Assembly: GCA_964525315.1 (NCBI GenBank)
Contig: CAZGGJ010000004.1
Coordinates: 5,675 to 69,674, forward strand
Origin: an uncultured Candidatus Saccharibacteria bacterium
GTDB lineage: Bacteria > Patescibacteriota > Saccharimonadia > Saccharimonadales > Saccharimonadaceae
Reading direction: 5' to 3'
Length of the DNA: 64,000 nt
The translations under genes and the position numbers were made by a program. The stretch's first letter is position 1, and each line of letters begins with the position of its first letter. This document shows, piece by piece, positions 1-46,360 of the stretch. The notes beneath the pieces are model-generated. The model was not told where the DNA came from and did not search any database. It was given only the letters and a program-made list of their open reading frames with translations.

Positions 1-1
1 A

Positions 2-655
2 GACAATGTGGTGATTCGCGATACGGAGATAGACGGACGTGACCTAAGCGGTGTCCGTCAATGCGCTAGTTCGTTTGGTTGGAACGGTTCCGGCACCTAT
101 CCAAATATTATGTTTGCACAAAATGCAAAAGTGCTTCGCACCTATTGCCACCATGGTCTCGCTGGGATGCCAACATTTTGGGAAACGCAAACTATCTATA
201 CCGAAGATTTATGGTCGTTTAGTACAGCCAGTGCGAGCGGTAATTTATCGGGACACTGTATTAATCATGAACAGTGCAAAGGGCCGGTCACTCATGTCCG
301 TCCGCGGATGTTTGTGTTTAATGCGCAATCGGCAAGTACGGCACCGCCCTCTCCGTTACCAGATGATACGCGTACCACCAATAGCGGGTTTCATTTCTCT
401 TTGTTTACGACAATCGACGATATCGGGGCAACTACCACCATCATTGAGCCGGTTTGGGATAAGGCATATACCGGCTCGGGCCTGCTTATTATGGCGGGGT
501 ATGATGGCTACAATGGCGGTGGCAGTGGTGGTACGAGCGCGCTTGTCACCGCCCCGACGATTGTCAAAAATGGCGTGACGCTACAGGTATACAATCACCC
601 AACAAGCGGGTGGAATACCGCCGACCCGGCGACGCGATTCGCGTGGTTGCACTAG
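2..655 (+). CDS. 3' part of a gene truncated by the window start; unknown surface-type protein
   Basis: Frame is open from nt 2 (DNVVIRDTEIDGRD...) to the TAG at 653-655. The track ORF 8..655 begins at an internal GTG. Same strand and tight spacing with the following island genes. Confidence 0.45.
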   Translation, partial: DNVVIRDTEIDGRDLSGVRQCASSFGWNGSGTYPNIMFAQNAKVLRTYCHHGLAGMPTFWETQTIYTEDLWSFSTASASGNLSGHCINHEQCKGPVTHVRPRMFVFNAQSASTAPPSPLPDDTRTTNSGFHFSLFTTIDDIGATTTIIEPVWDKAYTGSGLLIMAGYDGYNGGGSGGTSALVTAPTIVKNGVTLQVYNHPTSGWNTADPATRFAWLH

Positions 656-718
656 GGAGAAATGGTGTGAAATATAGCAAGAACGGGGTCTACGCTAGCA
701 ACCGACAGGAGAAAGAAC

Positions 719-1771
719 ATGTCTATTAGCGCAAGAAGGTTATCTCGAGCTACAGCGCCTGAAGTAGACGATTTCATTCTTGGCGTCACGATTCCGGTGC
801 CGGGTGTGAACGTCGGCGTATATAGTGGTGTTGCGCGTACAACCTATAGCGGCCCGACGACGATTACGACGAATGGCACGACTATCCAGAACCAAAACAT
901 TACGCAGTATATCGACGTCAATGCCAAAGATGTCACATTTATAAACTGCTCCTTCTCGGCCGGCGGAGACCTATCGACGGGAGGCATGGTAAACTGTAAG
1001 TCAGCTACCTGCGAAAATATTCGTTTCTATCGCTGTACATTCATGCCAGCTACGATGAGCGACCGCCGAGACGCGGTCTACGGACACGACTATACGGCAG
1101 AACGCTGCCATATCGAGCGCACGGTTGACGGCTTTGCGGTCGCAAATCAGTACGCCGCAGCCGCCAATGTACACCTGCTTGGTAACTGGATTGGTAATCT
1201 CGCATGGTACAACGATGACCGCCAGGGCCAAGGCAACGGCGGGCATAACGATGGTACGCATAACGATGGCGTTCAAATCCACAGCGGCACGAATATTCAT
1301 ATCCAGGGCAACGCCTTTTATGGCTACAAGTTCAACGCGCTTGGCACGCCAGCACTAGATAGTTCTGCCGATAATCGCCATCCACAAATTGGTCAGATAC
1401 TGATGGCCAGTACGGCAGCGTATTATCACGTGGGCGATGTGCACTTCAATAGCAATTTCATATGGGGTGGAGACAATGGCGTCAAGACGTCGTCCAAGTG
1501 TTCTATTCATAACTCCTCAGATGCTGCGTTCGACCTGGAGTGCCGCAACAATACGTGGATGGACGACAACCAGCGTGACTACGGCTATACCTGGAAATTC
1601 TATCTTATCCGCACCGATAACCTAATGACTATTAACGGGCGCGGCCCTTTCACAACGTCGCCCGGGTCAGCAACCTACGACCTGGATGGCAACAAATGGT
1701 CGGCTACTTCGCCCGATGTCAGCCCAGCGCGGCGCGGCGCGGCAGTGTTTGTCCGGGCTGACCCCGCTTAG
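719..1771 (+). CDS. right-handed beta-helix (pectate-lyase-superfamily-like) protein with N-terminal ARRL tag
   Basis: 350-aa ORF. N-terminus is MSISARRLSRA. Beta-helix-type repeats are present (NITQYIDVNAKDVTFINCSF, HNDGTHNDGVQIHSGTNIHIQGNAF). No hydrophobic signal segment. Confidence 0.6.
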   Translation: MSISARRLSRATAPEVDDFILGVTIPVPGVNVGVYSGVARTTYSGPTTITTNGTTIQNQNITQYIDVNAKDVTFINCSFSAGGDLSTGGMVNCKSATCENIRFYRCTFMPATMSDRRDAVYGHDYTAERCHIERTVDGFAVANQYAAAANVHLLGNWIGNLAWYNDDRQGQGNGGHNDGTHNDGVQIHSGTNIHIQGNAFYGYKFNALGTPALDSSADNRHPQIGQILMASTAAYYHVGDVHFNSNFIWGGDNGVKTSSKCSIHNSSDAAFDLECRNNTWMDDNQRDYGYTWKFYLIRTDNLMTINGRGPFTTSPGSATYDLDGNKWSATSPDVSPARRGAAVFVRADPA

Positions 1772-1835
1772 TTTGGCGATAAAATAACGGTTCTGTATAA
1801 TAAACCATAAGTATCTATAGGAGGAAAGTAATCTA

Positions 1836-3050
1836 ATGGGAAGTCCAGGAGTAGGCGGGTCGCTCAGTGCAGCAAGTGACGTAGCGTTTAGTAGTCCTAC
1901 GAACGGACAAGTGATTACGCGTAGTGGTGGGTATTGGGTGAATGCAGACTCAGCTGGCGGTACGGCCGCTGCGACGAGCATTTTACAGATTGATGATTTT
2001 CCTGGTGCCAACGACAATGCCAAGCATGTCGCTGCGTGGGATGCTGCCAGGAATGCGACCCGCAAGCCGATATTACAGTATCCGGCGCGGACCTTTGGGC
2101 CGCTGACGACGCCAATCGCGGCGTTTTCGGGCATGCGGGCAATCGGACCGGACGCCAATGGAAGTGACGGGCCGAAAAACCAAGAAATTGGCGGCGGCAA
2201 CCTCGTGCCGCATAGAGTTAATGTGAACTGCGGCACGGGTACGTCAGCCTTGTTTGTCCAGTCCAGTACTATCCAGGAAGTTATTTTCGCCAACATTTCA
2301 TTTTCTGGCTCGTCCGGCTCGCAGTGGTGGCACAATGTCAACGGTAGTTCGTACTCGATTTATCCGGGGCTGTTTCATTCGCTATCGTTTGATGGGTTCA
2401 ATTCGGTCCTCGGCAACGCCGCGCAGAAGTTTACCGCCACCCAGGTCGTGTTCTCTGGGCACTGGACGGTGCTGAACTACCAGCTGACGCCGCTGCATAT
2501 CGGCGGGTCGGACAACTCGCTGTGGATGTCGGGGTATCTTAATTCCAACTCACCCGCAGGCGTGAGCGGCAATGGTAATCCTATCATTCACTTTGACTAC
2601 CTCGAGAAGTCTAATATCGGCTATATGTTTATTACCGCCGAAAACGATTGGCTAGGGATGCGCGTATCAGGGCCTATCGCTCGCGCTATAAGCGTATACG
2701 GCGGTACGTTTGAGGGTAGGGCCACTGGCAACCCGGCGACTCGGCCAGTGATTGATATCGCTGGCGGGCATGTCACGATGTATAGCCCGGATATCGGCTA
2801 TGTGACGACGGCCAATGGCGCGATTACCCAGTCCGCTGGCGTCTTGGAATGCTATAGTCCACACTACCGCAAAGCATCGGCTGCAGCTGCAACCTTCCCG
2901 ATGCTCTATCAGACTGGCGGCATTGCTCATATTACGCGGCCACTCAGCGCGGATGGCAATGCAATTCGCATTCGCTGGAAGGATGCAGCACTTGGTACTC
3001 AGGATGAGGATATCCCCTATCCCACAGGCAATAGCCGGGAGACCTGGTAA
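1836..3050 (+). CDS. MGSPGVGGSLSAASDVAFS-family protein (tail-fibre/tailspike-like), paralog of 12318..13568
   Basis: 404-aa ORF with RBS AGGAGGA at 1819-1825. The N-terminal about 40 aa are nearly identical to the 12318 product. Shared blocks include FSGHWT..N, GGSDN/GGADC..LW..GY and G.LN.N. Confidence 0.6.
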   Translation: MGSPGVGGSLSAASDVAFSSPTNGQVITRSGGYWVNADSAGGTAAATSILQIDDFPGANDNAKHVAAWDAARNATRKPILQYPARTFGPLTTPIAAFSGMRAIGPDANGSDGPKNQEIGGGNLVPHRVNVNCGTGTSALFVQSSTIQEVIFANISFSGSSGSQWWHNVNGSSYSIYPGLFHSLSFDGFNSVLGNAAQKFTATQVVFSGHWTVLNYQLTPLHIGGSDNSLWMSGYLNSNSPAGVSGNGNPIIHFDYLEKSNIGYMFITAENDWLGMRVSGPIARAISVYGGTFEGRATGNPATRPVIDIAGGHVTMYSPDIGYVTTANGAITQSAGVLECYSPHYRKASAAAATFPMLYQTGGIAHITRPLSADGNAIRIRWKDAALGTQDEDIPYPTGNSRETW

Positions 3051-5642
3051 ATGTCGCGATTTGTTCAGCGCCTGATGCGTGTCGCACACCCACCTGTGAC
3101 GCCGCCTGGCGGAACGAGCCCGACAGCTGATGCCGGCTCAGTGCCGGTCGGTACCGCGAGCTACACGGTGCCGGGCGATGCGATATATGTCGCGACGACT
3201 GGAAACGACACAACCGGCACCGGTGCTGCCGGGTCGCCATACCGGACACTGGCCAAAGGCATTTCGTCGGCCACAGCTGGCAAGACGATTGTTATGCGCG
3301 CTGGTACGTACCACGAAGGCGGCAGCAACCATACATCGGCTATCGGCCTAACTGTTACAAAAAACAATCTCACGATTCAGAATTATCCTGGCGAGGCCGT
3401 ATGGTTCGACGGTTCAAGTACACAAACCGGCTGGACACAGTCCGGCAGCACCTGGTACATCCCATGGACCAAGCAGTTCGACCACAGCCCGACAGCCACG
3501 AGCGGAGCCAACGATGGGACCGATGCTGGCTGGAAATGGATTAACGATAACTACCCATGCGCGCCATTCCCTGAGCAAGTGTTTGTCGACGGCGTGCCGC
3601 TGACGCAGGTAGGCTCGCTCGGCGAGTGCGTGGCCGGTACGCTCTTTGTTGACGGCACGACAGCGGGCAACAAAATCTTTACGCCAACACGTCTCTACAT
3701 TGGCACGAATCCTGCTGGCAAGACGGTCAACGTCACCGACCTGCATGTCTTCCTGAACCTTGGCCAAGGCTACACTAACCTAACGATTCGCGGTATCGGT
3801 ATTCGCCGCTACGGCAATGCTTTGCCGCAGTATGCTGTGCTGCGCTTTGACGGCAATAACAACACGACCAACTCGCTACTCGAAAACGTCGTCATCGAAG
3901 ACACGGCCGGCATTAGCGCAACGTCGAACCAATGCCATGGCAATACCTTCCGTCATATCACAGTGCGCCGGGCTGGCTACCGGGCACTCGGCGGCTATCG
4001 CTCCGACAACCTGACGTTCGACAAAGTCCTTATCGAATACGCTAATACTGAGAATTTCAACTCTAGCCCTGATTCCGGCTGTATCAAGGTGACACAGTCG
4101 CAGCACGTGACGCTCAGTAATAGCATCCTCCGCGACAGCAAGTGCAAGGGTATGTGGTTTGATATGTCGGTGTATGACATGAACGTCTATAACAATGACT
4201 TTCTCCGTCTCAAAGATACCTGCGCGTTCTTCGAAATCAGCGGTACTGGCATCTGCGCCAACAACCTCTTTGTTGACTGTCCATCTGAAGCCATCAAGGT
4301 CAACAACACCGACAACATGCAGGTCTGGAACAATACCATCGTCAATTGCGGCGCGCTCAGTCAGCGATTGACGCCCGATACGTCCAATCTGGGCAATGGT
4401 GACCGCCGCCCATTGGCCGTCTACCAAGAAAGCCGCCGTCCGGCTAATACTTCGTACGGACTGGATGGCCGCTATCCGCTGGGTCACGCCATGTACACCA
4501 CGTACATGACTTGGCAAATCAACGACATCGACATTCACAACAACATCGTTACCGATACACCGGCCAATGCCTACGCGATATTCTGCATCGACGACCAGCA
4601 GGTGCAGTCAGGTGGCGCCAACCAGCTCCTAGCAAGCTATGGTGTTAATATGACAGCTAATGTCTTTCATTGGACAACCGCTCCGACCACTACTTTCCCG
4701 TATCCCTATATCTTCCCGCCAACTACTGTTGGCAGCTCGACACCGGTCGTGTACTCAACGCACGCAGCGATGCGTTCGGCCACGTCGCTTAATGCAAATG
4801 GTGTCGAAATCAACGCCAAGGGTTCGGGCACGTCTAACGCATCACCAATCGATGCCAACTATGCAGTCACGACAGCCCAAGCGGCGCTTCATACGAGTGC
4901 CACCGCACTCAGCGGCACTATCGCAGCGCTTATCGGACAGTCAGCCGGTGCCAAACATGCGGGTGCTTGGCGCGGTGAAACCGAGACACCACCCAGTGAA
5001 GTACGAGAGATAGGCTGGATTGGCGACTCGCTGACGTACCAAGATAGTGGCAACGGACAGACGGCTATCAAGAATCTTCTCGTTGCCGGAGGATGGCAGA
5101 ATACCAATAGCACTCGTGTCGATGGGCTGGTTGGCCGGTCGATTATCAATGGCGTCGCTCCGTATATTCCGAGTTCACAGACGGTGATAGACACCTGGCG
5201 GGCGGATGGATTCAATCCGCGAACCTGGTGTTTTGCGCTGGTGACGAATGACGAGTGGGACACCGATAGCGGCTGGACGAATAAAGTCAACACGCTACTC
5301 GCCAAAGTAAAGGAAGTGCCACATAGTAGTGGTTTGCCATATCGCATCTTCTGGGTCGGCGGACCTATCTATCGGCAAGATATCGCCGATGCTAATAGTC
5401 CGACGTATGCCAACCGCGCTACAAGGTTCGCGGCCGTCATGGCATCGATTCGTACTGCGCAACTGGCGGGCGGGCAGATTGGCGAAATGACCTATATCGA
5501 CTTCCCGGCGCTTTATCGCAATGGCAGGGACGAAACCGGACACTGGCAATCAGGCGACTCAACCGGCCGCCACATGACTGCCACCGGCTACGGGGTTCGC
5601 AATACACTCACCGTACCCTTGGTCACGCCGCCGGGCAATTAG
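3051..5642 (+). CDS. large beta-helix (DUF1565/pectate-lyase-like) protein fused to a C-terminal SGNH/GDSL hydrolase domain; ARRL-type tag variant
   Basis: 863-aa ORF abutting the stop of the previous gene. N-terminus is MSRFVQRLMRV. The signature GTASYTVPG.AIYVATTGNDT..G....PYRTL...., TIVMRAGTYHEG, LTIQNYPGEAVWFDGS and IRGIGIRRYG is shared with the 22686, 24688, 27584 and 39604 products. GDSL block I (IGWIGDSLTYQDSG) has GDS at nt 5022-5030. Confidence 0.7.
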   Translation: MSRFVQRLMRVAHPPVTPPGGTSPTADAGSVPVGTASYTVPGDAIYVATTGNDTTGTGAAGSPYRTLAKGISSATAGKTIVMRAGTYHEGGSNHTSAIGLTVTKNNLTIQNYPGEAVWFDGSSTQTGWTQSGSTWYIPWTKQFDHSPTATSGANDGTDAGWKWINDNYPCAPFPEQVFVDGVPLTQVGSLGECVAGTLFVDGTTAGNKIFTPTRLYIGTNPAGKTVNVTDLHVFLNLGQGYTNLTIRGIGIRRYGNALPQYAVLRFDGNNNTTNSLLENVVIEDTAGISATSNQCHGNTFRHITVRRAGYRALGGYRSDNLTFDKVLIEYANTENFNSSPDSGCIKVTQSQHVTLSNSILRDSKCKGMWFDMSVYDMNVYNNDFLRLKDTCAFFEISGTGICANNLFVDCPSEAIKVNNTDNMQVWNNTIVNCGALSQRLTPDTSNLGNGDRRPLAVYQESRRPANTSYGLDGRYPLGHAMYTTYMTWQINDIDIHNNIVTDTPANAYAIFCIDDQQVQSGGANQLLASYGVNMTANVFHWTTAPTTTFPYPYIFPPTTVGSSTPVVYSTHAAMRSATSLNANGVEINAKGSGTSNASPIDANYAVTTAQAALHTSATALSGTIAALIGQSAGAKHAGAWRGETETPPSEVREIGWIGDSLTYQDSGNGQTAIKNLLVAGGWQNTNSTRVDGLVGRSIINGVAPYIPSSQTVIDTWRADGFNPRTWCFALVTNDEWDTDSGWTNKVNTLLAKVKEVPHSSGLPYRIFWVGGPIYRQDIADANSPTYANRATRFAAVMASIRTAQLAGGQIGEMTYIDFPALYRNGRDETGHWQSGDSTGRHMTATGYGVRNTLTVPLVTPPGN

Positions 5643-5671: not shown

Positions 5672-6454
5672 ATGCTTGCCAGAAGACTACAACGAGCGGC
5701 GACTGCATCTACGCCTGAAGAGCCGGGCGGATTCGTGCCGAACCTCATAAATAACCCGCACCTGGGCGGCTATCCTGATGCCACGAATACCGGTGTGCCG
5801 GCAGGCGTCACACTCACTAACAGCGGACCTATCACCGTTACTACCAACGGTGCCGTTATCCAAAACCTCAATATCGTCAACGGCAATATCACTGTCAATG
5901 CCAACAACGTAACGATTCGCAACTGCCGCATCACTACCTATGACTATTATCCGATTGACAATGGCGGTACGAACCTCTTGGTCGAAGACTGCGAAATTAC
6001 CGGCACTGACCCGAATGTGGCGGCAGCAATTAGTTTTTCTAATTACACCGCTCGGCGTGTCCATGCAAAGGGCAGTGCCGATGGCTTCAAGGCCAATGCC
6101 AACTGTGTAATTGAGGATTGCTACATCCATGACCTGGCTGTCACGCAAGATTCGCACAACGACGGCATCCAGTCAACCGGTGGCGATAACGTGACCGTAC
6201 GGCACAATACTATCGATACCAATACCGACGGCGTCGCTATCCAGTTCGGTTCAAGTAATACCGGCTGGCTGGTGACGAACAACCTGGTGCGTGCCACTGG
6301 CTGGGCATTCAACGGCGGCAGCGGCACATCGAACTGTACGTTTACGAACAACCGCTTCGCCCGCGTGTCTGGCTGGTACGGCCCTGCCTCCTTGGGCGGC
6401 TCCGGCAACACCTGGAGCGGCAATATCTATGATGATACGGGCAGCCCAGCCTAG
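5672..6454 (+). CDS. small right-handed beta-helix protein with shortened ARRL tag
   Basis: 260-aa ORF. N-terminus is MLARRLQRAA. Motifs: GAVIQNLNIVNGNITVNANNVTIRNCRIT, DCEITG, HNDGIQSTGGDNVTVRHNTI. Confidence 0.6.
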   Translation: MLARRLQRAATASTPEEPGGFVPNLINNPHLGGYPDATNTGVPAGVTLTNSGPITVTTNGAVIQNLNIVNGNITVNANNVTIRNCRITTYDYYPIDNGGTNLLVEDCEITGTDPNVAAAISFSNYTARRVHAKGSADGFKANANCVIEDCYIHDLAVTQDSHNDGIQSTGGDNVTVRHNTIDTNTDGVAIQFGSSNTGWLVTNNLVRATGWAFNGGSGTSNCTFTNNRFARVSGWYGPASLGGSGNTWSGNIYDDTGSPA

Positions 6455-6540: not shown

Positions 6541-6578
6541 AGAAGTAACATAACCACAAGCATCTATGGAGTAGCCAC

Positions 6579-7415
6579 ATGCCACGATTACCACAACCAG
6601 GAGGAGACCAAGGTAACTGGGGCCGAATTCTCAACGACTACCTCTCCCAGGCTCACAAATCAGACGGAACCCTAAAGGACAATATTGTCTCGGCCCCTTC
6701 CATTACTAACAACACCATTACCGAAGACAAGCTTGATACGGCTGTCCGTTCCAAGCTCAATAGCGGTGGTGGTACACAAGGAGCAACTGGACCACAAGGT
6801 CCGCAGGGTGTGCAGGGGCCGGCAGGTATCGCGGGCCAAATGGGTGCGACGGGTCCGCAAGGCCCAGCTGGCGCACAAGGCCCTGCAGGCTCTGTTGGCG
6901 CAACCGGGGCGACCGGTGTTGGTACTCCTGGGGCGACGGGTGCGACAGGTCCACAGGGTAATCAAGGTTCCGCTGGGCCTCAGGGCGCCACTGGTCCTCA
7001 GGGGTCGGCAGGAGTAGTCGGTGCAACTGGGCCAACTGGGACTGCAGGTGCTTCTGGTGCAACTGGTCCTCAAGGGGCCACTGGTCCTGCTGGCGTCGAT
7101 GCCGATGCACTTATTCCTACGAATATACAAACCGGCTCATACACACTTGTTCTTGCCGATGCCGGTAAAGCGATTGACGTCAACTCGGCGTCAGCCACCA
7201 CTATGACTGTTCCGCCAAATGCCAGTGTGGCCTTCCCAGTCGGTACGGTTATAGAAGTGTGTCGTTATGGTACGGGCACTGTTGCCGTCGCCGCCGGGGC
7301 GGGTGTGACGATTCGGTCGCGTGGTTCGTTGATGTCTATCGCGGCTCAGTATAGTTCGGTATCGCTACGCAAGCGGGCGATTGATGAATGGATACTAGTC
7401 GGAGACCTTAGCTAA
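6579..7415 (+). CDS. collagen-like (Gly-X-Y) fibre protein, short form
   Basis: 278-aa ORF with RBS GGAG. N-terminus is [23 protein letters not shown]. Aa 65-172 are about 36 Gly-X-Y triplets. The globular C-terminal domain is shared with the 13722 product. Confidence 0.8.
6771..7094 (+). repeat. Gly-X-Y triplet-repeat coding region
   Basis: GGN-NNN-NNN periodicity ([16 protein letters not shown]...). It generates spurious long ORFs in the other five frames. Confidence 0.85.
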
Positions 7416-7771
7416 TGGCAGCAGTACATCATATTGCACGGCGTGGCCAGATGCAGTATCCTACCATCGCACAGGCTATGGTACAGGCTCATTACCGAGT
7501 GAATCTCGGTAATGTTGCGAGCTCACACCGCTTCCGTGCTCGCTCAACTGACCGCACTGAGCTAGTTATCGTCAACAATTCCGGTGGCGAGCTTCAGCTT
7601 GGCTCGCGTACTACCGATAACCCTGACTATAACTCGCCTTCAACATGGCCTTACACGGTACCAGATGGGAGTGAAGCCGTTATCACTGGCGATACACTGC
7701 AGTGGTACGCGCGCCGAACTGACGGCACCGGAGATATTTTTGTCGATGTGTATGTCAAGGAGATTGCGTAA
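7415..7771 (+). CDS. small conserved protein (118 aa), possible fibre accessory or chaperone
   Basis: The ATG overlaps the upstream stop (TAATG) and its own stop overlaps the next ATG (TAATG). Paralog of 14561..14917 (shared NSPSTWPY.VP.GSE.VIT.DT.QWYARR.DGT.D.FVDVYVKE.A). Confidence 0.6.
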   Translation: MAAVHHIARRGQMQYPTIAQAMVQAHYRVNLGNVASSHRFRARSTDRTELVIVNNSGGELQLGSRTTDNPDYNSPSTWPYTVPDGSEAVITGDTLQWYARRTDGTGDIFVDVYVKEIA

Positions 7772-10277: not shown

Positions 10278-10320
10278 AAGGGAAACATAACCACAAGCAT
10301 CTATGGAGTAACTAACAATC

Positions 10321-38176: not shown

Positions 38177-39595
38177 ATGACCGCGATTTTGAGTAACAAT
38201 GCACGAGGCGGCGTCGCTGGGCAATCGGTGACGCAGTATAACTCTGGCGAAGTGTCGGGCGATTCTTGGCGGTACATGTTTTTAAGCGCTACTGCCACAA
38301 TTACCTATGCCCAGGCACCGGTGCGAAGCGATATTGTTCATAAGTTTAGTAGCGGCTCAACCGCGGGGCAGGCTTATCTGACGTGGGGTATTCTACCAGA
38401 TGCCCCAGTGTATTATGTCCGGTTTTATGTATATCCAGAAGGTCTACCTAGCGTGTCGGTGCGTTTTTGTGAATTGTGGGTAGATGAGTCAACGTTCGGA
38501 TTTACGCTGGGCATGCGGGCCAGTGGGCAGCTTGCGCTGAAGGACAGTCAAGGTGCCACCGTCGGAGATTCGACGATTCGTCTTCGGCCGAGCCAATGGG
38601 CGCGGATAGAGCTAAAAATCGTGGCAAGTCCGACCAATGGACAGGTAGAAACGCGTATATATACCGAGGCAGATTCGCCGTACTATGCCGAACGTATGGT
38701 ATCGGCTGCGACATTCAATACACTTCCACTTGCCAATTCGTCTAGTTTTCGATTTGGCCTACCAACACTCCCTAGCGCGAACTACACGGCGTATCTCAAC
38801 TGTATGAGCATCAGTGACACTGATTGGCTCGGGCCAGCTGACTGGGGCGTCGATGCCCCACTGGTGATTCGTAACGATGCCGAGACTGGCACGCCGGGAG
38901 CTACCGTTGCGCCAAATAATAGTGGTGATGCTCAAAATCGTTTTATCGACGGTGTCGCAAACGCCGTAGGGGCCAGTACCTATAGCACCGCGCAAGCCGC
39001 GCATGGCAGTCAGTCATTTTATTTTCAGCCCGTGGATGGTGACGCACACTTCTATGTCTACAGGCTTTTAGGGACGAATCGAGCGGCAGCGCGGATGTAC
39101 CTCTACCTCACGGCATTACCGGCAGTGGGCGCCGAAGTGATGCAGTTTACAACCCCTGACCTAGGTGGCTTTGCGGCGCTCTCACGCGTCATAATCTCTT
39201 CTACGGCGCAAATTTCACTATGGGATTCGGCTGGTACGGTGCTGTGGACCTCTGCTGCGCCAATGCCACTCAATACTTGGATACGATTTGAAATGTTCGC
39301 GCAGATTGGTGCAACGGCCGGCACGGGTGAAGTTCGGTTCGCATACTACAATCACGATAGTACCACGCCCGTCCAGTCGTTCTCGACATCAACCGCCAAT
39401 CTAGGAACGCTTACTATTGGTGGCGCACGCTTCGGTAAGGTCAATAACAACTCCTGGACCGCACCATTCTATCTCGATGGTCTATCTATACAGCAGGCGG
39501 CGAGTGGCTTTATCGGCCCGTGGGCGACTCCACCAACTCCACCAGCATCCTTTGCTGGCATTGTGCCACACTTAGGGTGGGGAAGGCAGGTGTAA
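38177..39595 (+). CDS. tandem lectin-like jelly-roll protein, paralog of 21239..22663
   Basis: 472-aa ORF. Same N-terminal (MTAILSNNARGGV) and C-terminal (GIVPHLGWGRQV) motifs and the same two-domain layout as the 21239 product. Confidence 0.5.
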   Translation: MTAILSNNARGGVAGQSVTQYNSGEVSGDSWRYMFLSATATITYAQAPVRSDIVHKFSSGSTAGQAYLTWGILPDAPVYYVRFYVYPEGLPSVSVRFCELWVDESTFGFTLGMRASGQLALKDSQGATVGDSTIRLRPSQWARIELKIVASPTNGQVETRIYTEADSPYYAERMVSAATFNTLPLANSSSFRFGLPTLPSANYTAYLNCMSISDTDWLGPADWGVDAPLVIRNDAETGTPGATVAPNNSGDAQNRFIDGVANAVGASTYSTAQAAHGSQSFYFQPVDGDAHFYVYRLLGTNRAAARMYLYLTALPAVGAEVMQFTTPDLGGFAALSRVIISSTAQISLWDSAGTVLWTSAAPMPLNTWIRFEMFAQIGATAGTGEVRFAYYNHDSTTPVQSFSTSTANLGTLTIGGARFGKVNNNSWTAPFYLDGLSIQQAASGFIGPWATPPTPPASFAGIVPHLGWGRQV

Positions 39596-39603: not shown

Positions 39604-41283
39604 ATGAGTATAACAGCACGGCGTTTGAGTAGAGCGACACAGGAAGTTACGAGTGGTTGGCCGCAGCTTTCAGCGCAGCGGGGTGCATTGACGATTGGTA
39701 CGGCGAGTTACACAATTCCTGGCAGTGCTGTGTATGTCGACTCGGCAAGTGGCTCGAACAGCAATAGCGGCACACTCAATTCACCATACCAAACAGTCGC
39801 CTATGCCACGTCACAAGTTGCCGCGAACGGTACGGTTGTCTGCCGTGCTGGCGTGTATCATGAACAGTTCGAGCATACGCCTAGCGACAATGCCTGTACG
39901 GTGATGAATTATCCTGGCGAGGAAGTCTGGTTCGACGGCTCGGTCGTTGTTACGAGTTGGACGCAAAATGGCTCGACATGGGTGCATAACGGCATTCCAA
40001 CGAAATTCAATCATACCACTAGTGCCGGCTGGGCAGATTATCCGAATTTTCTGCAGGGCGATATGTACGCCGGCCTGTCCGACCAGGTATTTTATGATGG
40101 GGCTCGTTTGACGCAAATCGCCGATGGTGCAACACCCAGTGCTGGACAATTCTCGGTAAATTACACCGCAAATACTATCACCATAGGCTCTAACCCGAAT
40201 GGTCATGAGGTGCGCGTCTCTGACCTGCGCTACCTAGTGATTGCTTCGCAGCGCATCTCATGGAAGGGAATTGGTGTGCGCCGCTACGCTCCCGACAAGA
40301 CCAGTGATGTCGGCGCCCCATTTTACTACGGTGGCAGTTCAGCTGGCTCCAGCTTTGAAAATGTCGTCGTCAAGCAGTCATCAATTGCCGGCTGGGCACT
40401 GAACAAGCCAAATATGACGCTGCGTTACTGCACTGCCGAAGACAATATGCATACTGGCATCGGCGGTTCGTACTGCGATGGCCTTGTGGTGGATTCGTGT
40501 GCCATGCAGAACAACAACGTCGGCAAGTTCAAAGCACAACCAACCACAGCAGGCATAAAAATCACCGACTGCCTTGGCGTGACAGTCAGTAATTGTTACG
40601 TCGTGGACAATACGGGCGGTATGGGCATATGGTTTGACGTGTCGTGTGTCAAAGTAAATGTGCTGCACAATTACATTAAAGGCGCACACTACGACGGTAT
40701 CACGATGGAGCTAAGTGCGGGCGGCTATATCAGCGGGGTGCAGTACCGAAGCATTGTAGCCGGCAACTACATAGATGGTGCGCAGTTCGGTATCGGTTGT
40801 CTGGATAGCAGCTACACCGATATCTACAACAATACGTTTATCAACTGCACCTCGGCTGATATTATGATGCAGCGTGATGACCGTCCGCTCAATACCGGCA
40901 ACAAAACACGCACGCTTGCCGAATGTTCCTGGGATACGACCTATAACACGAATGTTAACAATATTTTAGGGCCGTGTACCATTCCGATTCGTGTCTTTGA
41001 TAGCAACAATAACCGCAGCGCCGATGTCATGTACAACGAAGTTCGCAACAATACCATCACGAAACTATCGGGTGGGATTATCCAATGGGGCAATGCCAGC
41101 AATAGCTACACGACCTACAATACGCCAGCAGCATTTCAGGCTGCCGTGCCAAGTTTGTCGAGTGGTAATATTCAATCGGCCACTATTGACCACACCCAGG
41201 CGTTTGGCGTGCCAGCTCACGTAGCAAATGCGCTCGGGGTTGCATCTAATACGAAGCGTATGGGGGCGTGGGTTAATTCGTAA
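39604..41283 (+). CDS. beta-helix (DUF1565/pectate-lyase-like) protein with ARRL tag
   Basis: Start chosen at MSITARRLSRA (ATG 39604); the track start 39520 overlaps the upstream gene. Motifs: GTASYTIPGSAVYVDSASGSNSNSGTLNSPYQTV, TVVCRAGVYHEQ, NYPGEEVWFDGS, WKGIGVRRYAP. Confidence 0.7.
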   Translation: MSITARRLSRATQEVTSGWPQLSAQRGALTIGTASYTIPGSAVYVDSASGSNSNSGTLNSPYQTVAYATSQVAANGTVVCRAGVYHEQFEHTPSDNACTVMNYPGEEVWFDGSVVVTSWTQNGSTWVHNGIPTKFNHTTSAGWADYPNFLQGDMYAGLSDQVFYDGARLTQIADGATPSAGQFSVNYTANTITIGSNPNGHEVRVSDLRYLVIASQRISWKGIGVRRYAPDKTSDVGAPFYYGGSSAGSSFENVVVKQSSIAGWALNKPNMTLRYCTAEDNMHTGIGGSYCDGLVVDSCAMQNNNVGKFKAQPTTAGIKITDCLGVTVSNCYVVDNTGGMGIWFDVSCVKVNVLHNYIKGAHYDGITMELSAGGYISGVQYRSIVAGNYIDGAQFGIGCLDSSYTDIYNNTFINCTSADIMMQRDDRPLNTGNKTRTLAECSWDTTYNTNVNNILGPCTIPIRVFDSNNNRSADVMYNEVRNNTITKLSGGIIQWGNASNSYTTYNTPAAFQAAVPSLSSGNIQSATIDHTQAFGVPAHVANALGVASNTKRMGAWVNS

Positions 41284-41314: not shown

Positions 41315-42616
41315 ATGAGTAGATTTGCACGCCGACTACAGTATGCAGCCTCTTCCGTGCGGCGCTATCCGGGCTATTTGCCGCCGTTTTTGACACGTCC
41401 AACCGGAACTGATTATGTACGCTATGAAGACTTGGTCCAGGGAGGTGATGCGGTCACAGTGACGACAGTGGGCACGCAACCTGTCTATCAATTCGGCGCT
41501 GGCGTATTCCAGACTATCATTGAACGGTGTCCGGCAAACAAATGGATGACATTTCCGGCGGGCGTCTTTGAAATTAATTCTCCAGGCTGGACGATTGGCG
41601 ACAACGCCGCCTGTCAGTGGCCCAAGACGTCCTACGGCGCTATCGGTAATTGTCCACCCGGAACTGGGTGGGATGACCTCGCGCCCGACAACCAGCGGAC
41701 GGTATTCCGGGTGAAGGCAAATACTGCCCCGAGCAAAAACGTGGCCGGCGCATGGTTCAGGATAGGATATAGTGGCTCGGTAAAGCAGTCGTGGGCCAAT
41801 ATTCATTTTGAAGGCACCGACCAAGGCATGCAAGTATCGGGCGATACGGGCAACAATAGTGGTCCCGGCAATGACGGCACCTCACGGCGTTTGTTTACAA
41901 ATGCCTTTTTCTGGAATGTGGCTGATAATTCCAATGCTCGCGATATCTTGTCAACAGGGAATTTCGGCAATAACGGAGCTCCTCCCGGTGAAACATTCGG
42001 TTTTCAGTGGTATCACTCTACTAATCCCGTACTATGTCGCATTTATGTGGATGGCCGCCGCATGGCGGGCGGGCCTATTTATTCGGCGGCTGGTATTACC
42101 TTTGGCAACACGCTCGGCGGCATCCTGACCGATAGCTGGACACATCACAATGGGCAGGCAGGTGTGGTTTTCTTCCAAACGGCAAATTGCGTCAGTTATG
42201 GCTGCCGGCTAGGTGACCCAAGCGACCACACGACGAATCATGTCAATGGCAAGGCGAATGGCGATTGGCTCAATCATGAGCGGAGTACTGGCAATGTCCA
42301 TACTGACATGAACCTCCATGTCTACAGCGTCGGCAAAGCACAGGGCGAGCATGTTTCGCATTCCAATGATAGCTGGACGCTGTCTCGCTCCGGACAGGAT
42401 ATCCCAGTTGATAATGGTACGGTGAAGTTTATCAACCAGACACACTCGCAGATATTATTTGGCGGTTCTGGGTATCCACTGACTATCGCGACATGGGTGC
42501 CGTATTGGACAGGCAATACCATGCAATCCAGTAATAGGCCTATTATCGTTGCCGCTGACGGCATAACGCCAGTGGCCGCAAAGTGGAACTTCGGAGGGAC
42601 ATGGCTAGATGTGTAA
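41315..42616 (+). CDS. ARRL-tagged protein of unknown function, paralog of 42638..43813
   Basis: 433-aa ORF. N-terminus is MSRFARRLQYA. Shared blocks: YVRYEDL.Q.GD, FP.GVF, G.NGAPPGETFG, VDGRR....YSAAGIT.G, HHNG.A..VF. Confidence 0.55.
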   Translation: MSRFARRLQYAASSVRRYPGYLPPFLTRPTGTDYVRYEDLVQGGDAVTVTTVGTQPVYQFGAGVFQTIIERCPANKWMTFPAGVFEINSPGWTIGDNAACQWPKTSYGAIGNCPPGTGWDDLAPDNQRTVFRVKANTAPSKNVAGAWFRIGYSGSVKQSWANIHFEGTDQGMQVSGDTGNNSGPGNDGTSRRLFTNAFFWNVADNSNARDILSTGNFGNNGAPPGETFGFQWYHSTNPVLCRIYVDGRRMAGGPIYSAAGITFGNTLGGILTDSWTHHNGQAGVVFFQTANCVSYGCRLGDPSDHTTNHVNGKANGDWLNHERSTGNVHTDMNLHVYSVGKAQGEHVSHSNDSWTLSRSGQDIPVDNGTVKFINQTHSQILFGGSGYPLTIATWVPYWTGNTMQSSNRPIIVAADGITPVAAKWNFGGTWLDV

Positions 42617-42637: not shown

Positions 42638-43813
42638 ATGAGTATCGCCGCACGACGACTAATGAGGGCGCCAGCCGTTACGAGCGACCGTCCGACAGGT
42701 CCGGGGTATGTCCGCTATGAAGATTTGTACCAGCCTGGCGATTCAGTAGGCGCGGCCCTCAATCGCCTCGCGACACCAGCCATTGTGACCTTCCCAGAAG
42801 GGGTGTTCCTGCTCAATGGGTTTCAGTATTATGGCGGTGCCATTGACTGCAAAAAAACAATGGTGCGCGGTATCATTGGCTCTGGCTCGGGAACATTGTT
42901 CGACGAAAGCCGTGGTACGATTTTCAAGATGGTGCCAAATAGCTCGTCGTTCGTCAAAGGTACGTCACCAGAAACACCTACCCAGGCGCAGGGCGGCACG
43001 ACCCAGGTATGGGTAATTCGCTGCGTCGGTGCCGAGGGGGATGTACGGTTCGAAAACTTCCAAATAGTTGGCACCGAACAAGGGCACAACTACAACGGCC
43101 TCTATGCCTACCATGTTCAGGGAAGTACGACGATAAAAAATGTCAAAGTATCGGGAGTGGCTGGCGATAACGGCGCTCCTCCGGGTGAAACATTTGGCAT
43201 CTCGGCGTATCAGGGCAATATGGGCACCACAGTTATTGAAAACTGCGAAGTCGACGGCAGGCGTAGCGGTGCAGCTGGTTCCTCGTGGTATAGCGCAGCA
43301 GGGATTACCAGTGGGCAATCTATTGGTGCGACCATTCGTGGGTGCCATTCTCACCATAACGGTGCTGCGGCGTTTGTGTTCTATCGCGCGTTTGACGGAG
43401 TATTCGAAAATAACATTTGCGGCACGACCGACCCGGCAGCCCACGCCACGACCAATTTGAGGGGCTGGGGCGTTAATCAGGAAGAAACGGCCGGGATTGT
43501 GCACAAAAACTGCACCTATCGCCACGGTGCGGTCAACCAAGGCGTGCATATTTCACACTCTAACACCAATCGGTCGTTCCAGTATACCGGCTGGCCATCG
43601 CGTTCGGTGGTTGATGGGAGCCTTAAGGTCGTCAACCCGACATTCACAGATATATGGGGTAATAATTATTTTTACATTCAGTCATGGCTCACTGGTGTAG
43701 ATGGCACGAGCAATAACGATTCGATGGTGACGCCGCCGCTCGTCACACTGACTGACGGTGTGACTCACCTGCCATACAAATGGGCGCATGGCCCGACGCA
43801 GACTGTAACGTAA
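42638..43813 (+). CDS. ARRL-tagged protein of unknown function, paralog of 41315..42616
   Basis: 391-aa ORF with RBS AAGGAG. N-terminus is MSIAARRLMRA. Confidence 0.55.
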   Translation: MSIAARRLMRAPAVTSDRPTGPGYVRYEDLYQPGDSVGAALNRLATPAIVTFPEGVFLLNGFQYYGGAIDCKKTMVRGIIGSGSGTLFDESRGTIFKMVPNSSSFVKGTSPETPTQAQGGTTQVWVIRCVGAEGDVRFENFQIVGTEQGHNYNGLYAYHVQGSTTIKNVKVSGVAGDNGAPPGETFGISAYQGNMGTTVIENCEVDGRRSGAAGSSWYSAAGITSGQSIGATIRGCHSHHNGAAAFVFYRAFDGVFENNICGTTDPAAHATTNLRGWGVNQEETAGIVHKNCTYRHGAVNQGVHISHSNTNRSFQYTGWPSRSVVDGSLKVVNPTFTDIWGNNYFYIQSWLTGVDGTSNNDSMVTPPLVTLTDGVTHLPYKWAHGPTQTVT

Positions 43814-43829: not shown

Positions 43830-45122
43830 ATGAGCATAGCAGCACGACGATTCCAGCGAGGTATCTCGAATAATACCGAAAACAACGTTCCCGAACGTGG
43901 GCCGGTCAGTTTCGCCAACTTGGCCGCAGCCAGGGCGGCGCTGAATACACCTTCGGATGCCAATTACGTCATGTGGAATTCCTCTTGGCCGGTCAATCGC
44001 GACCTAGAAGACGTCTTTGCGACCGAACTAGCCGACAACGATATTCTGGTGCTGCCGGAGCGTCCGCAGCCCTACGTTGTTGATTCGAGTGAAGGTTTTC
44101 GGGCTGCTGGCGTAGGTTGGGTACAGGGTCGTAACGGCTTGCTGCCTATCGTCAATCGCTACAAGAACATTCGCAATGCCCGCACCTGGTTCGCTATGGC
44201 CAGGGCACGGCGCGGTATCTTGGGGCTAGGTCCAAACGCCGTGATAGAAATGAGTCAATCATCGTGGACGATGGAGCCGCAAATCGAAGACCAAGGCAGT
44301 GTGCAAGAGTCCGACGGCTGGACGTCGATAGGACGATATTACTACGATACGGCTGGTGTCAAGAGGTCCGAGCTGGTCGGCTGTCAAGAGAAAATTATCG
44401 AATCAGCACATGCGACCCCGTATTTTGGTAACTTTACAATGCGTGCGCACGCGCTTGGTGGCATTGCGTTTTCAGGGCTAACAACCAACGGCAATCCAAC
44501 GATGACAACCTTTGAGCGGCTGGACCTATCGGGCTCGTGGTATGGATTCCAAGGGATTCCGAATGGTGAGGCCGGTGGGATTGGCGTAGGCCGCGGGCAA
44601 TACTTGGTGAGCCGTTGTGTTTTGGGTACGCGCGATAGCAATGGCAATCGTTTTGGAACGTCACCGGTTATGATTAACAGCTCGACTGGCGGCCTCATCG
44701 AGCATACTGATGCGTGTGAAACGAATCATGGCATGCTGACGATTTGGAACTCCAGCGGTACGCACACGCTCAATAACGTCAACTTGCGCTTTAATTCGGG
44801 TCCAGGCATGAATCTGGAGAAAAACCAAGCTGGCATGGTGCTCAATATGAACGGCGGCTCAATCTGGTCGGACTATTATGGCAACGGCGGTAAATCGCCT
44901 AAGCCAGCTGACCAAGGTACTAAAGGCAGGCTGCATATAGGGATATTTTCTGAAGTTGGGTCGGCCAAAATTACCCTGCGCGGCGTCGACCTCGATACAG
45001 GCCCAACGGCGGGCGCACTGAACTGTCAATCGTACGGAGCGACACAGCAACTAGCCAGTGACATCAAGTGTTATGACGCGAATAATAATCCCATACCAGT
45101 GAAGGCGTACGGACTCAATTAG
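43830..45122 (+). CDS. ARRL-tagged protein of unknown function, distantly related to the two preceding genes
   Basis: 430-aa ORF with RBS GAGGAAG. N-terminus is MSIAARRFQRG. Contains GIPNGEAGGIGVGRG and NHGMLTIWNS blocks. Confidence 0.5.
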   Translation: MSIAARRFQRGISNNTENNVPERGPVSFANLAAARAALNTPSDANYVMWNSSWPVNRDLEDVFATELADNDILVLPERPQPYVVDSSEGFRAAGVGWVQGRNGLLPIVNRYKNIRNARTWFAMARARRGILGLGPNAVIEMSQSSWTMEPQIEDQGSVQESDGWTSIGRYYYDTAGVKRSELVGCQEKIIESAHATPYFGNFTMRAHALGGIAFSGLTTNGNPTMTTFERLDLSGSWYGFQGIPNGEAGGIGVGRGQYLVSRCVLGTRDSNGNRFGTSPVMINSSTGGLIEHTDACETNHGMLTIWNSSGTHTLNNVNLRFNSGPGMNLEKNQAGMVLNMNGGSIWSDYYGNGGKSPKPADQGTKGRLHIGIFSEVGSAKITLRGVDLDTGPTAGALNCQSYGATQQLASDIKCYDANNNPIPVKAYGLN

Positions 45123-45129
45123 GTAGCCA

Positions 45130-45138
45130 TGATACAAT
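45130..45138 (+). promoter_or_regulatory. extended -10 (TGATACAAT) 7 nt upstream of ATG 45146; candidate leaderless promoter
   Basis: TG is at 45130-45131 and TACAAT at 45133-45138. No Shine-Dalgarno sequence. Confidence 0.4.
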
Positions 45139-45145
45139 CATAAGC

Positions 45146-46360
45146 ATGAGCATCGCAGCACGACGGCTACAGCGAGCACGGCTGGCATCGCAGTCGTACC
45201 AAGGTACGAGCAACGGCCCCTTGGGCTATCGCATCAGTGAAATGTTCGGCGGTGATGGCAATGGTTCGTGGATTAATACCCCGATGCCAGCCAACACAAG
45301 CGTCCACGCGGATTCAGCCACGGCAGTTGCTGACCTCTGTTATAACATCTACGAAAAGGCCACAGGTACGAATGTCGCTGCTTGGCCGATTATCAATGCT
45401 GGCAACTATTGTGCCACTATCAATGTTATCCCGCACGGCACGCCGTTGGTAAAAGTATGGTCAAGCGAACTTCCGCAGCACTGGAATGACCCCAGTAAGT
45501 GGTCGGGCCATGCCATGCAGTATGACGGCTTTCCGATACCGGAGGGCCTAGAGCCAACCAACGACTCGGACGGCACCATCTTCCTCTATGACCCCGACTG
45601 GGAGTGGCCTGGCCGTCCAGGCGACCCGCAGTACAAGGGGCGGGTATATGAGCTATGGGGCGCACAGTCACCAGAACAAAACGTAGCCAATGGACTTCCG
45701 GCACGCTGGACGGCGAAGTATCCGGGGCGACTATCCGGCGTGAACAATCGTCTCACTGGGCATCCTGTCAACCGGACTACCGGTGATGCGCTGAGTACCG
45801 CCATGCCAACCTTTACGGCGCCCAAAGCACCCAATGACACCTCGGCCAATACTGGCTATGTAGGATATGGCCGGGATGGTGTCGCCGAACACTCTGGTAT
45901 GATGGCGAGTGCGTCGCACATCCCGATGAGCCACACGCAGATTCGAATATCTGATGTAGTGAAGGGTGTCATTAATCACCCGCTGGGGTTTGCGCTTTTC
46001 GGCTATGATGGGTCGCCAAAAGGCTACGTGTGGCCGGCAACCGGGTATGATGGCGCCAGTCGACCGTGGATGAAGCATGGCAATCGGTTCCGGCTCCCAG
46101 CCAGCTATACTGCGACCTATCCGGCAAATATGCCTGTCGCGTGGCGTCCTTGGTTCGATATGTTTATCCAGTGTTTCAAGGACTACGGCGTGATGCTAGT
46201 AGATACCACAGGCAACTCATTTGCGCTTCGTGGTGAGCCAGGAGTACAGAATTATTATCCTGCCGGTTTCAATAGCAATACGTTCATCAAGTACTTACCG
46301 TGGGCCGATATGGAAATGCTCGTTGTAGGGAATGATAATGAGTTCTACCCTTCCGCATAG
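45146..46360 (+). CDS. ARRL-tagged protein, paralog of 9002..10225
   Basis: 404-aa ORF. N-terminus is MSIAARRLQRARLA. Collinear similarity with the 9002 product over the full length. Confidence 0.55.
   Translation: MSIAARRLQRARLASQSYQGTSNGPLGYRISEMFGGDGNGSWINTPMPANTSVHADSATAVADLCYNIYEKATGTNVAAWPIINAGNYCATINVIPHGTPLVKVWSSELPQHWNDPSKWSGHAMQYDGFPIPEGLEPTNDSDGTIFLYDPDWEWPGRPGDPQYKGRVYELWGAQSPEQNVANGLPARWTAKYPGRLSGVNNRLTGHPVNRTTGDALSTAMPTFTAPKAPNDTSANTGYVGYGRDGVAEHSGMMASASHIPMSHTQIRISDVVKGVINHPLGFALFGYDGSPKGYVWPATGYDGASRPWMKHGNRFRLPASYTATYPANMPVAWRPWFDMFIQCFKDYGVMLVDTTGNSFALRGEPGVQNYYPAGFNSNTFIKYLPWADMEMLVVGNDNEFYPSA

Follow-up and report, generated by a model that had tools for sequence, protein, structure and literature searches.

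A gene island of actinophage-like fibres and envelope-active proteins with poly-G promoters in a Saccharibacteria genome, probably a phase-variable repertoire for host recognition

Bdellovibrio bacteriovorus, a bacterium that lives off other bacteria, possesses the mosaic adhesive trimer (MAT) fibres, multi-gene phage-fibre-like trimers with a conserved N-terminal module and swappable tips, which are proposed or shown to recognise prey surface glycans (PMC10769870). In host finding by Patescibacteria, only type IV pili and a few glycan-binding proteins have been implicated so far (PMC9894109, PMC10633639). Cultivated Saccharibacteria have Actinobacteria as their known hosts; in Southlakia epibionticum, host glycans are the proposed targets of essential envelope proteins that bind glycans or contain a dockerin (PMC10633639). 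The present analysis concerns a 64,000-nucleotide (nt) stretch from an uncultured Candidatus Saccharibacteria bacterium (assembly GCA_964525315.1, contig CAZGGJ010000004.1, positions 5,675 to 69,674), hereafter the window, in which positions 1-46360 hold an island of 35 genes (g01-g35, Table 1); 34 of these are on the plus strand, g23 being the sole minus-strand gene of the array. The island is probably a native repertoire of a Saccharibacteria genome, presumably that of an obligate epibiont of Actinobacteria, and not a prophage; it would be used in a phase-variable manner for recognising and opening the host envelope, and by analogy of function the MAT repertoire appears to be its closest precedent. 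In the proposed mechanism, five collagen-like trimeric fibres, which have their N-domain, knob and tip in common with tail fibres of Actinobacteria phages, would act together with about 20 proteins that are enzymes or bind glycans (beta-helix, GH5, GH16, GDPD, SGNH, BNR-, PKD- and dockerin-bearing) encoded in at least seven operons, each starting from a sigma70-type promoter with a G10-12 tract in the spacer between -35 and -10. Slipped-strand changes of the tract could alter the spacer and switch the operons independently, and the population would show differing combinations of fibres and enzymes as a hedge across host surface types.

The MATs, beta-helical or S74-type proteins with a signal peptide and a beta-rich N-domain, are encoded at scattered places in the genome and have no known repeat-based switch (PMC10769870). 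In contrast, the island fibres possess collagen-like shafts and actinophage-type modules, carry no Sec signals, are clustered with enzymes and are associated with poly-G promoters. The island resembles S. epibionticum in encoding saccharibacterial proteins with polysaccharide-binding or -degrading domains, dockerin included; the S. epibionticum proteins, however, are not phage-fibre-like, and neither phase variation nor an island organisation is reported for them (PMC10633639). Searches of the Saccharibacteria literature for tail fibres, collagen-like proteins, tailspikes or phase variation returned nothing relevant, and in the papers searched neither such an island nor homopolymer contingency promoters were described for Patescibacteria. 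If the proposed reading is correct, phage receptor-binding modules would have been adopted by a cell that parasitises the hosts of those phages.

Phage counterparts and chromosomal context

Five products (g06, g10, g12, g16 and g24) matched the Pfam Collagen family (E 1e-14 to 1e-26), contain G-X-Y runs of 7-37 triplets and share the N-terminus MPRLPxPGGDxGNWGxILNDYL. An initial annotation, made from the DNA letters and their open reading frames (ORFs) and confirmed here in every feature that it listed, had noticed both the collagen-like fibres and N-termini of the WG..LN..L type, the latter present on all five fibres; a 12-residue motif and a YDANYLYVC..TNTWRRV C-terminus, which it had also listed, were located in g16 and g10, respectively. 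Over its last ~100 residues, the tip, g06 and g12 each share 57-66% identity with the C-terminal ends of minor tail proteins from about 223 Gordonia phages: 57-61% for g06 against these proteins, and 66% for g12 against the C-terminus of Gordonia phage Jabberwocky gp38, the gene of which lies within the tail cluster directly 5' of the endolysin gene. The knob between the collagen runs of g10 is 59-63% identical to Gordonia phage proteins, that of g24 is 51-61% identical to proteins of Gordonia, Corynebacterium and Mycobacterium phages, and the fibre N-domain is 46-49% identical to proteins of high-GC viral contigs. One N-domain relative directly follows the tape-measure gene of a high-GC prophage-like element with terminase, portal and integrase. 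The phages concerned, with those related through the GDPD, SGNH and g03 modules below, infect Actinobacteria, or seem to by GC content. By these comparisons, the fibres are of the actinophage type from end to end. They are like actinobacteriophage minor tail proteins such as Jabberwocky gp38 (NC_055818) in the tip (60-66% identical) and in having phage counterparts for the knob and the N-domain. Unlike the phage proteins, they are encoded in a cellular chromosome that offers no virion genes nearby, a context that speaks against their being built into a virion, and have promoters of their own; Jabberwocky gp38 does not contain a collagen shaft. Small proteins following the fibres, in the position where phages place fibre chaperones, had been pointed out as well; g07 and g13 (~118 amino acids, aa) are indeed translationally coupled to fibre genes and conserved in relatives, g07 in the related loci L004 and L015-L018.

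Phage relatives were also found for some of the enzymes. The glycerophosphodiester phosphodiesterase (GDPD) encoded by g17 shares 35-50% identity with enzymes or minor tails from phages of Microbacterium, Clavibacter, Streptomyces and Actinomyces, and g08 shows 27% identity (E 5e-16) to an Alcaligenes phage tail protein. The SGNH esterase fusion noticed initially is confirmed for the C-terminus of g04 as a predicted domain. Pfam was negative on this domain; its AlphaFold2 (AF2) model (pLDDT 82) had SGNH hydrolases as top Foldseek matches (E 3e-4, TM ~0.5), a GDSLT motif is encoded at nt 5022-5036, and a relative with 49% identity (P0035) carries PF13472. The domain is 80% identical to a gene on phage contig L082 (Logan SRR30230065_1913; 38 kb, GC 0.68), which possesses tape-measure, minor tail, endolysin and holin genes, and the L082 gene adjoining this SGNH-type gene is 64% identical to part of g03. 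In L082, which is uncultured and siphophage-like, the SGNH esterase and g03-like tailspike genes lie directly after the endolysin-holin cassette; the L082 endolysin shares just 27-30% identity with Streptomyces phage endolysins.

The remaining products gave a different picture. The island encodes about ten beta-helix proteins. Pfam Beta_helix, NosD or DUF1565 matched eight products (g02, g04, g05, g19, g20, g21, g31 and g33), which upholds the beta-helix part of an earlier assignment as beta-helix depolymerase-like proteins; no phage homologue was found by tblastn of g02, g04, g05, g19 and g31 against phages or by PHROGs on those scanned, and the idea that they are tailspike homologues was dropped on these silent searches. 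Likewise, the GH5 enzyme, g09/g35, g18/g30 and g32-g34 had no phage relatives in tblastn or PHROGs searches. The claim that the island concentrates protein types typical of phage tail fibres and tailspikes was therefore overstated: phage relatives exist for the fibres, for g03, for two enzyme domains (GDPD and SGNH) and, at a weak level, for g08, and for no other genes. Searches of PDB sequences with g03, g08, g18 and the g04 C-terminus gave nothing useful, and the g09 family had no PDB sequence match; Foldseek likewise gave no match to the g09 AF2 model (pTM 0.74; best E 1.2). NCBIfam contains no model for most island proteins or for the N-terminal tag described below.

Across the 64 kb, Pfam and PHROGs searches of the scanned products detected no capsid, portal, terminase, tape-measure, baseplate, integrase or lysis family, in agreement with the initial annotation, and no sheath or tube gene. 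The flank also proved cellular in character: g45 contains a type IV prepilin motif, an ABC ATPase and permease are encoded there, and weak WxLIP matches were obtained. The GC content is 0.51-0.59 throughout the island and the flank, with no step at the island border; a tRNA scan of the window found none, and an Rfam scan matched no family. In a scan with one genome per species, g09 relatives occurred only in metagenome-assembled genomes (MAGs) of uncultured Candidatus Saccharibacteria. A tag-bearing g09 relative with 45% identity (P0019) bears the NCBI label of a MAG of the actinomycete Sphaerimonospora mesophila, a label that may be a misassignment. In Saccharibacteria MAGs and metagenome contigs, the g09 orthologue adjoins dnaK, grpE and hrcA; genes for fibre, GDPD and PKD proteins lie close by, at a distance of a few genes, and in one lineage tatAC is adjacent to them. 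In another MAG, a module of fibre, small protein, BNR-like, g09-like and GH5 genes abuts gatCAB and dnaE, and in the MAG locus L006 island-type genes stand in groups of one to three among mutM, holA, rpsT, truB, pnp, htrA and udg, a g18 homologue following a fibre gene; the truB-pnp interval holds g09 relatives in some Saccharibacteria. The homologous loci of Saccharibacteria relatives are not embedded in phage genomes, although single domains do occur in actinophage contigs, and scans of IMG/VR found no relatives of g09, g08 or g03. On these comparisons, the best-supported reading is that the island genes would be native to the Saccharibacteria lineage and not a prophage.

Poly-G promoters and variation between strains

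Two features are new here, beyond the observations of the initial annotation: seven poly-G promoters and an N-terminal tag, MSIAARRLQRA. A repeat search found seven intergenic copies of TTGAC(A)-N8-9-G10-12-TAYCAT, all on the plus strand, preceding g06, g10, g12, g18, g24, g28 and g30. The hexamers fit the sigma70 -35 and -10 elements, and the G tract sits in a spacer of 18-21 nt, compared with spacers of 17-18 nt in the ordinary promoters of the window (before g03, g16 and g36). Elsewhere in the 64 kb there is no G/C run of at least 7 and no A/T run of at least 9, and about 0.3 G/C runs of at least 10 would be expected by chance, as estimated from base composition. In four sister-strain assemblies with identical flanks, two of which come from consecutively numbered runs, the P2 tract is G10, G11, G11 and G12, compared with G11 in the window, and the tract is the only indel. 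Two other Saccharibacteria genomes show this promoter design before genes of the island type; in L006 it stands before a g03-like gene, a gene for a tagged carbohydrate-binding module protein, a g09-like gene and a fibre gene. In one Joint Genome Institute (JGI) metagenome, it occurs at 10 places on five contigs, directly 5' of a fibre gene wherever downstream sequence was recovered.

A homopolymeric tract between -35 and -10 is the known arrangement of the surface-structure genes porA and opc in Neisseria, fim in Bordetella and hif in Haemophilus. The poly-G promoters possess the architecture of slipped-strand phase variation, with switching as a prediction from the sequence, and their G10-12 tracts reach the minimum of 9 nt set for such loci. 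They are like simple-sequence-repeat contingency promoters (for reviews touching on such loci, see PMC1891110 and PMC5320596) in that a homopolymer lies between -35 and -10 and its length varies between close genomes. Unlike the known examples, a single island contains seven of them, one at the head of each operon concerned; moreover, their spacers of 18-21 nt are unusually long, and switching is predicted. Such a switch could explain a variable host range within a population. Switching by DNA inversion or a shufflon was rejected, since the window contains no inverted repeats of at least 40 nt and no recombinase.

Several minor observations concern these promoters. In a metagenome scan, unrelated bacteria carried TTGACA-N8-poly(G)-TATCAT 5' of a lipoprotein gene (MTMRWMKRL..), with tracts of G11, G12, G11, G11, G13 and G11 in the near-identical contigs L028, L056, L059, L069, L073 and L075, respectively, and similar poly-G promoter sets were seen for other secreted proteins of unrelated bacteria. 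The leader after the -10 element (6535-6573 and 10272-10310) is nearly identical before g06 and g10 (..ATAACCACAAGCATCTATGGAGTA), and within it an inverted repeat, CCATAG..CTATGG, which may serve a regulator or have arisen by chance, overlaps both the -10 element and the ribosome-binding site. In L006, a G9 tract at 1601-1609 lies within a 176-codon ORF 5' of holA and is a candidate frameshift-type switch.

Variation between strains is not confined to the tracts. Compared with a sister strain, DNA identity is 95.6% in the g04 C-terminal region and ~97.5% in the g09 region, and just 78% in the g06-g08 module between them, where protein identity is 88% for g06, 75% for g07 and 69% for g08. Synteny with relatives, which had been proposed as a check on whether the island is fixed, variable or mobile, showed homologous clusters among housekeeping genes and without virion genes, with the fibre module and the presence of g05 varying between strains. 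In the paralogue pairs g03/g11, g10/g24 and g20/g21, the N-terminal parts are kept and the C-terminal parts are diverged or swapped: the first 40 aa of g03 and g11 are 82% identical and the rest ~30%, and g21 compared with g20 shows 50-68% identity in the N-terminal half and 12-30% in the C-terminal half. Kept N-termini combined with divergent C-termini are the pattern expected of recognition proteins.

The N-terminal tag and competing explanations

Fifteen products, all within the island, begin with M-[SA]-[IRQ]-[ASF]-[AV]-[RQ]-R-[LMFA]-[QSM]-[RQY]-[AVG] (consensus MSIAARRLQRA; tag A in Table 1), with RR in 14 of the 15 and with a form two residues shorter in g05, followed by a polar P/S/T/G-rich linker. 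Orthologues in other genomes keep the tag. Its codons differ synonymously and the DNA upstream is unrelated; the conservation therefore acts at the protein level, and recombination-driven conservation was rejected on the same two observations. The back-translated tag gave a single, chance-level match in viral contigs, and one GH5 paralogue in L004 has neither tag nor signal. A canonical Tat signal was rejected, as no h-region follows the twin arginine, and for lack of this region the tag is not a canonical Sec signal either. Sec-type signals were found only in g26, g27 and g29, and none of the tagged proteins, the fibres or the g03- and g18-type proteins carries a hydrophobic signal. In the flank, g36 possesses a complete signal peptide whose n-region, MSSFRRRLQQ, is close to the tag, especially to that of g23 (MSRFARRLQQ). 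In another Saccharibacterium, homologues of the g05 beta-helix family carry a signal anchor in place of the tag, which suggests that this family works outside the cytoplasm.

Every poly-G operon opens with an untagged fibre, a g18-type protein or g28, mostly followed by tagged enzymes. In the branched receptor-binding systems of Klebsiella phages, a conserved N-terminal peptide docks secondary proteins on a primary anchor (PMC6872550, PMC13352976). The island is similar in that varied depolymerase-type enzymes carry a common short N-terminal peptide and linker and an untagged anchor comes first, docking being suggested by analogy only; it differs in that its tag has no sequence relation to the Klebsiella peptides. 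A possible, though tentative, extension of the proposed reading is that the tag is an undescribed docking or export signal, through which the enzymes of each operon, folded and without a Sec signal, would be mounted on fibres or g18-type anchors and delivered by a non-Sec route, for example a Saccharibacterial type IV secretion system, to the surface of the epibiont or to the host. The whole would then be the counterpart of a phage tail tip: a branched apparatus for receptor binding that is subject to phase variation. Very few secretion signals have been characterised in this phylum, and the tag on the 15 enzymes may point to a route of export or docking that has not been recognised before.

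The initial annotation had offered, as one of two readings, a cellular, phase-variable repertoire of adhesins and enzymes. The cellular and phase-variable parts of this reading agree with the taxon, the housekeeping-gene neighbours and the poly-G promoters with their tract polymorphism; adhesion and surface display we only infer, because 32 of the 35 products have no Sec signal. Since fibre tips and wall-active enzymes are shared with phages of Actinobacteria, they point to host groups around Gordonia, Microbacterium and their relatives. Several points weigh against a host-recognition repertoire. Phage relatives exist for only about one third of the genes. The g06/g12-type tip is widespread, with 574 relatives, many of them short proteins, from named sources such as Microbacterium, Frankiales and Saccharimonadales, and its receptor-binding role in phages is assumed. 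A hydrophobic signal that would explain export is lacking in 32 products, compared with most of the 10 downstream flank products, which have one. The poly-G spacers exceed the length of the ordinary ones, and errors in sequencing or assembling homopolymers could account for the differences in tract length between assemblies. Finally, the frame of g01 is open from base 2, so that the island extends leftward past the window start and its left border lies outside the window.

Instead of recognising a host, the island could serve the organism's own envelope and nutrition, with collagen-like surface filaments, as BclA in the Bacillus exosporium, and degradation of environmental polysaccharides. BclA was indeed among the PDB sequence matches to g06, NCBIfam collagen adhesin models gave weak matches, and phage relatives are lacking for the beta-helix, GH5, GH16 and g09-type proteins. 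This explanation is nevertheless unlikely, as the fibre N-domain, knob and tip are all common with actinophage tail proteins, the SGNH, g03 and GDPD modules are likewise common with actinophages, and the strain-level turnover of cassettes and the variable C-termini fit a recognition arms race.

The shortage of Sec signals, the N-domain relative directly after a tape-measure gene in a high-GC prophage-like contig, and the likeness of the N-terminal peptide and linker to the peptide through which branched receptor-binding proteins of phages dock (PMC6872550, PMC13352976) could also be explained if the fibres and tagged enzymes were joined, inside the cytoplasm, to a phage-tail-like particle that has been domesticated or to another non-Sec scaffold encoded elsewhere, similar to a tailocin or a gene transfer agent, with the island as its exchangeable receptor-binding set. 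Such a particle is improbable: neither the 64 kb nor about 20 related loci contain a sheath, tube, baseplate or lysis gene, and g26, g27 and g29 are clearly Sec-type and surface-anchored. The small size of Saccharibacteria genomes, ~1 Mb, also counts against it.

The second reading of the initial annotation was the fibre module of a very large prophage extending beyond the window start. This reading, or the related one of a Saccharibacteria phage with virion genes out there, would be in line with g01 running off the left end, the many PHROG tail-fibre matches and the nearly uniform gene orientation. Comparison with relatives does not support it: there the families occur one at a time or in small groups, flanked by housekeeping genes and with no virion genes. 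Moreover, g09 is 100% identical to a protein on a 71.7-kb NCBI contig, most of which the window covers, and at most 7.7 kb of the contig lies outside; there is no composition step, integrase or tRNA, and megablast of window positions 1-25000 against 50,697 phage records gave no match, which makes a prophage very unlikely.

Domains common with phages that use the same hosts might alternatively reflect competition, in which released fibres and enzymes mask or destroy host-surface receptors and thereby exclude actinophages or rival epibionts. Saccharibacteria are reported to alter the phage susceptibility of their hosts, an effect that reportedly acts via host gene expression (PMC11032452); this scenario, which would leave export just as unexplained, has little to recommend it. 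An assembly chimera of actinophage and Saccharibacteria DNA, conceivable from the metagenome origin and the phage-like domains beside cellular genes, is hardly credible given the uniform GC of ~0.55 compared with 0.68-0.70 in related phage contigs, the g04/g06-g10 junctions reproduced in four independent assemblies and the same phage-like/cellular mixing in other Saccharibacteria MAGs. A native, phase-variable repertoire for recognising and opening the host envelope thus is the explanation that we favour.

Feature coordinates and neighbouring genes

Table 1. Genes, promoters and other elements of the island, with positions in the window (E values after family names; class-C and tag A denote types of N-terminus)
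Feature	Position	Strand	Description
g01	1..655	+	3' part of an ORF; no Pfam or PHROG family
g02	719..1771	+	Beta-helix protein, tag MSISARRLSRA; Beta_helix 1.5e-4; no PHROG
Promoter of g03	1773-1801	+	sigma70-like
g03	1836..3050	+	Tailspike-like, class-C N-terminus (MGSPGVGGSLSAASDVAFS); paralogue of g11; phrog_9729 tail fibre, aa 7-57; aa 49-118 64% identical to L082 gene
g04	3051..5642	+	Tag A variant, DUF1565/beta-helix (Pfam); predicted C-terminal SGNH esterase domain 4941-5642
g05	5672..6454	+	Tag A beta-helix; Beta_helix 4.9e-13; missing in sister strains L015/L016
Promoter P1	6508..6540	+	TTGACA-N9-G12-TACCAT, spacer 21; G10 in strains L015/L016
g06	6579..7415	+	Collagen-like fibre, actinophage tip domain aa 174-278; Collagen 1e-14; phrog_8780 minor tail C-terminus 3.6e-29
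g07	7415..7771	+	118 aa; ATGA overlap with both neighbours; no family; chaperone position
g08	7771..8982	+	BNR/Asp-box (STDDGATW); BNR_2 weak, 0.024; paralogue of g14
g09	9002..10225	+	Tag A; fold unassigned; paralogue of g35; 20 relatives, all tagged
Promoter P2	10246..10277	+	TTGACA-N9-G11-TATCAT, spacer 20; G10/G11/G12 among strains
g10	10321..12270	+	649-aa collagen fibre; knob between collagen runs, DUF5907, YDANYLYVC..TNTWRRV end (nt 12199-12252); Collagen 1.5e-25; C-terminus phrog_819 6e-55 and phrog_17312
g11	12318..13568	+	Class-C N-terminus, pectate-lyase-like; Pect-lyase_RHGA_epim weak
Promoter P3	13630..13659	+	TTGACC-N8-G10-TATCAT, spacer 18
g12	13722..14561	+	Collagen fibre, g06-type tip; 77.5% identical to paralogue g06
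g13	14534..14917	+	Small coupled protein, probable start 14561; g07 paralogue; no PHROG
g14	14917..16113	+	BNR-like, Asp-box motif; 69.5% identical to g08
g15	16145..17377	+	Tag A GH5 glycoside hydrolase; Pfam Cellulase 3.6e-23
Promoter of g16	17385-17413	+	Ordinary, TTGACA-17-TACACT
g16	17485..18471	+	Collagen fibre, 12-residue motif nt 18334-18369; Collagen 2.9e-19; phrog_5073/6320
g17	18475..20847	+	790 aa, C-terminal glycerophosphodiester phosphodiesterase; GDPD 1.1e-10; phrog_17803 3.7e-76
Promoter P4	21155..21185	+	TTGACG-N8-G11-TATCAT, spacer 19
g18	21239..22663	+	474 aa, untagged, first gene of operon; no family; 41% identical to g30
g19	22686..24680	+	Tag A beta-helix (Pfam Beta_helix); no phage match
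g20	24688..27540	+	Tag A, g18-like domain, PKD, DUF1565/beta-helix; K319L-like_PKD 1e-24, Beta_helix 1.9e-9; start at tag
g21	27584..30538	+	Architecture as g20
g22	30698..31846	+	AAA_14/DUF4143 ATPase (Pfam 2e-39) interrupting the array; adjoins GH16 gene g23
g23	31915..32772	-	Tag A GH16 hydrolase, tag MSRFARRLQQ; Glyco_hydro_16 1e-12
Promoter P5	32941..32971	+	TTGACA-N9-G10-TACCAT, spacer 19
g24	33021..34031	+	Collagen fibre, knob, Phage_tail_C tip; Collagen 1e-26, PF24243 6e-8
g25	34052..34495	+	147-aa tag A protein; no family
g26	34519..35319	+	Hydrophobic segments at both ends, membrane-anchored (predicted from sequence)
g27	35297..35962	+	Signal peptide and dockerin; Dockerin_1 8.7e-8
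Hairpin	~35990-36015		Terminator-like, 3' of g27
Promoter P6	36053..36084	+	TTGACA-N9-G11-TACCAT, spacer 20
g28	36109..36858	+	249 aa; no family
g29	36872..38059	+	Signal-anchored, hydrophobic N-terminus; g05 beta-helix family; homologues in L022, L064
Promoter P7	38076..38106	+	TTGACA-N9-G10-TACCAT, spacer 19
g30	38177..39595	+	g18-like, untagged, first gene of operon
g31	39604..41283	+	Tag A beta-helix; Beta_helix 1.1e-13 and NosD; no phage match
g32	41315..42616	+	Tag A; no family
g33	42638..43813	+	Tag A beta-helix; Beta_helix 1.6e-6
g34	43830..45122	+	Tag A; no family
g35	45146..46360	+	Tag A, 58% identical to paralogue g09; last gene of the array

The ATPase gene g22 is probably not part of the array. 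The 390-nt gap between g17 and P4 (20848-21238) contains a 62-codon ORF (MYDITKATAVKKDDE...). The genes g25, tagged, g26 and g27 follow the fibre gene g24 in one operon, an order conserved in L022, and may encode a small cohesin-dockerin-like display unit; cohesin models gave no match on g25 or g26. At the right end of the window (61497-64000), an ORF of at least 834 aa runs off the end and matches no Pfam or PHROG family, and the minus-strand ORFs in this region are probably shadows. Downstream of the island, g36 (46460-48529) combines a DUF5122/Rax2-like beta-propeller with a CE2_N domain. It is followed at 49529-58035 by six or seven secreted proteins (g38-g44), of which g41 and g44 are WxLIP-like with a C-terminal membrane anchor. 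The arrangement of g38-g44 resembles the WxL surface clusters of Firmicutes, the Pfam match (E 5.5e-5) being below threshold, and four of these proteins end in a similar aromatic motif (..YIAAPQY, ..YIASGRF, ..LIATGTF and ..VVIPTY).

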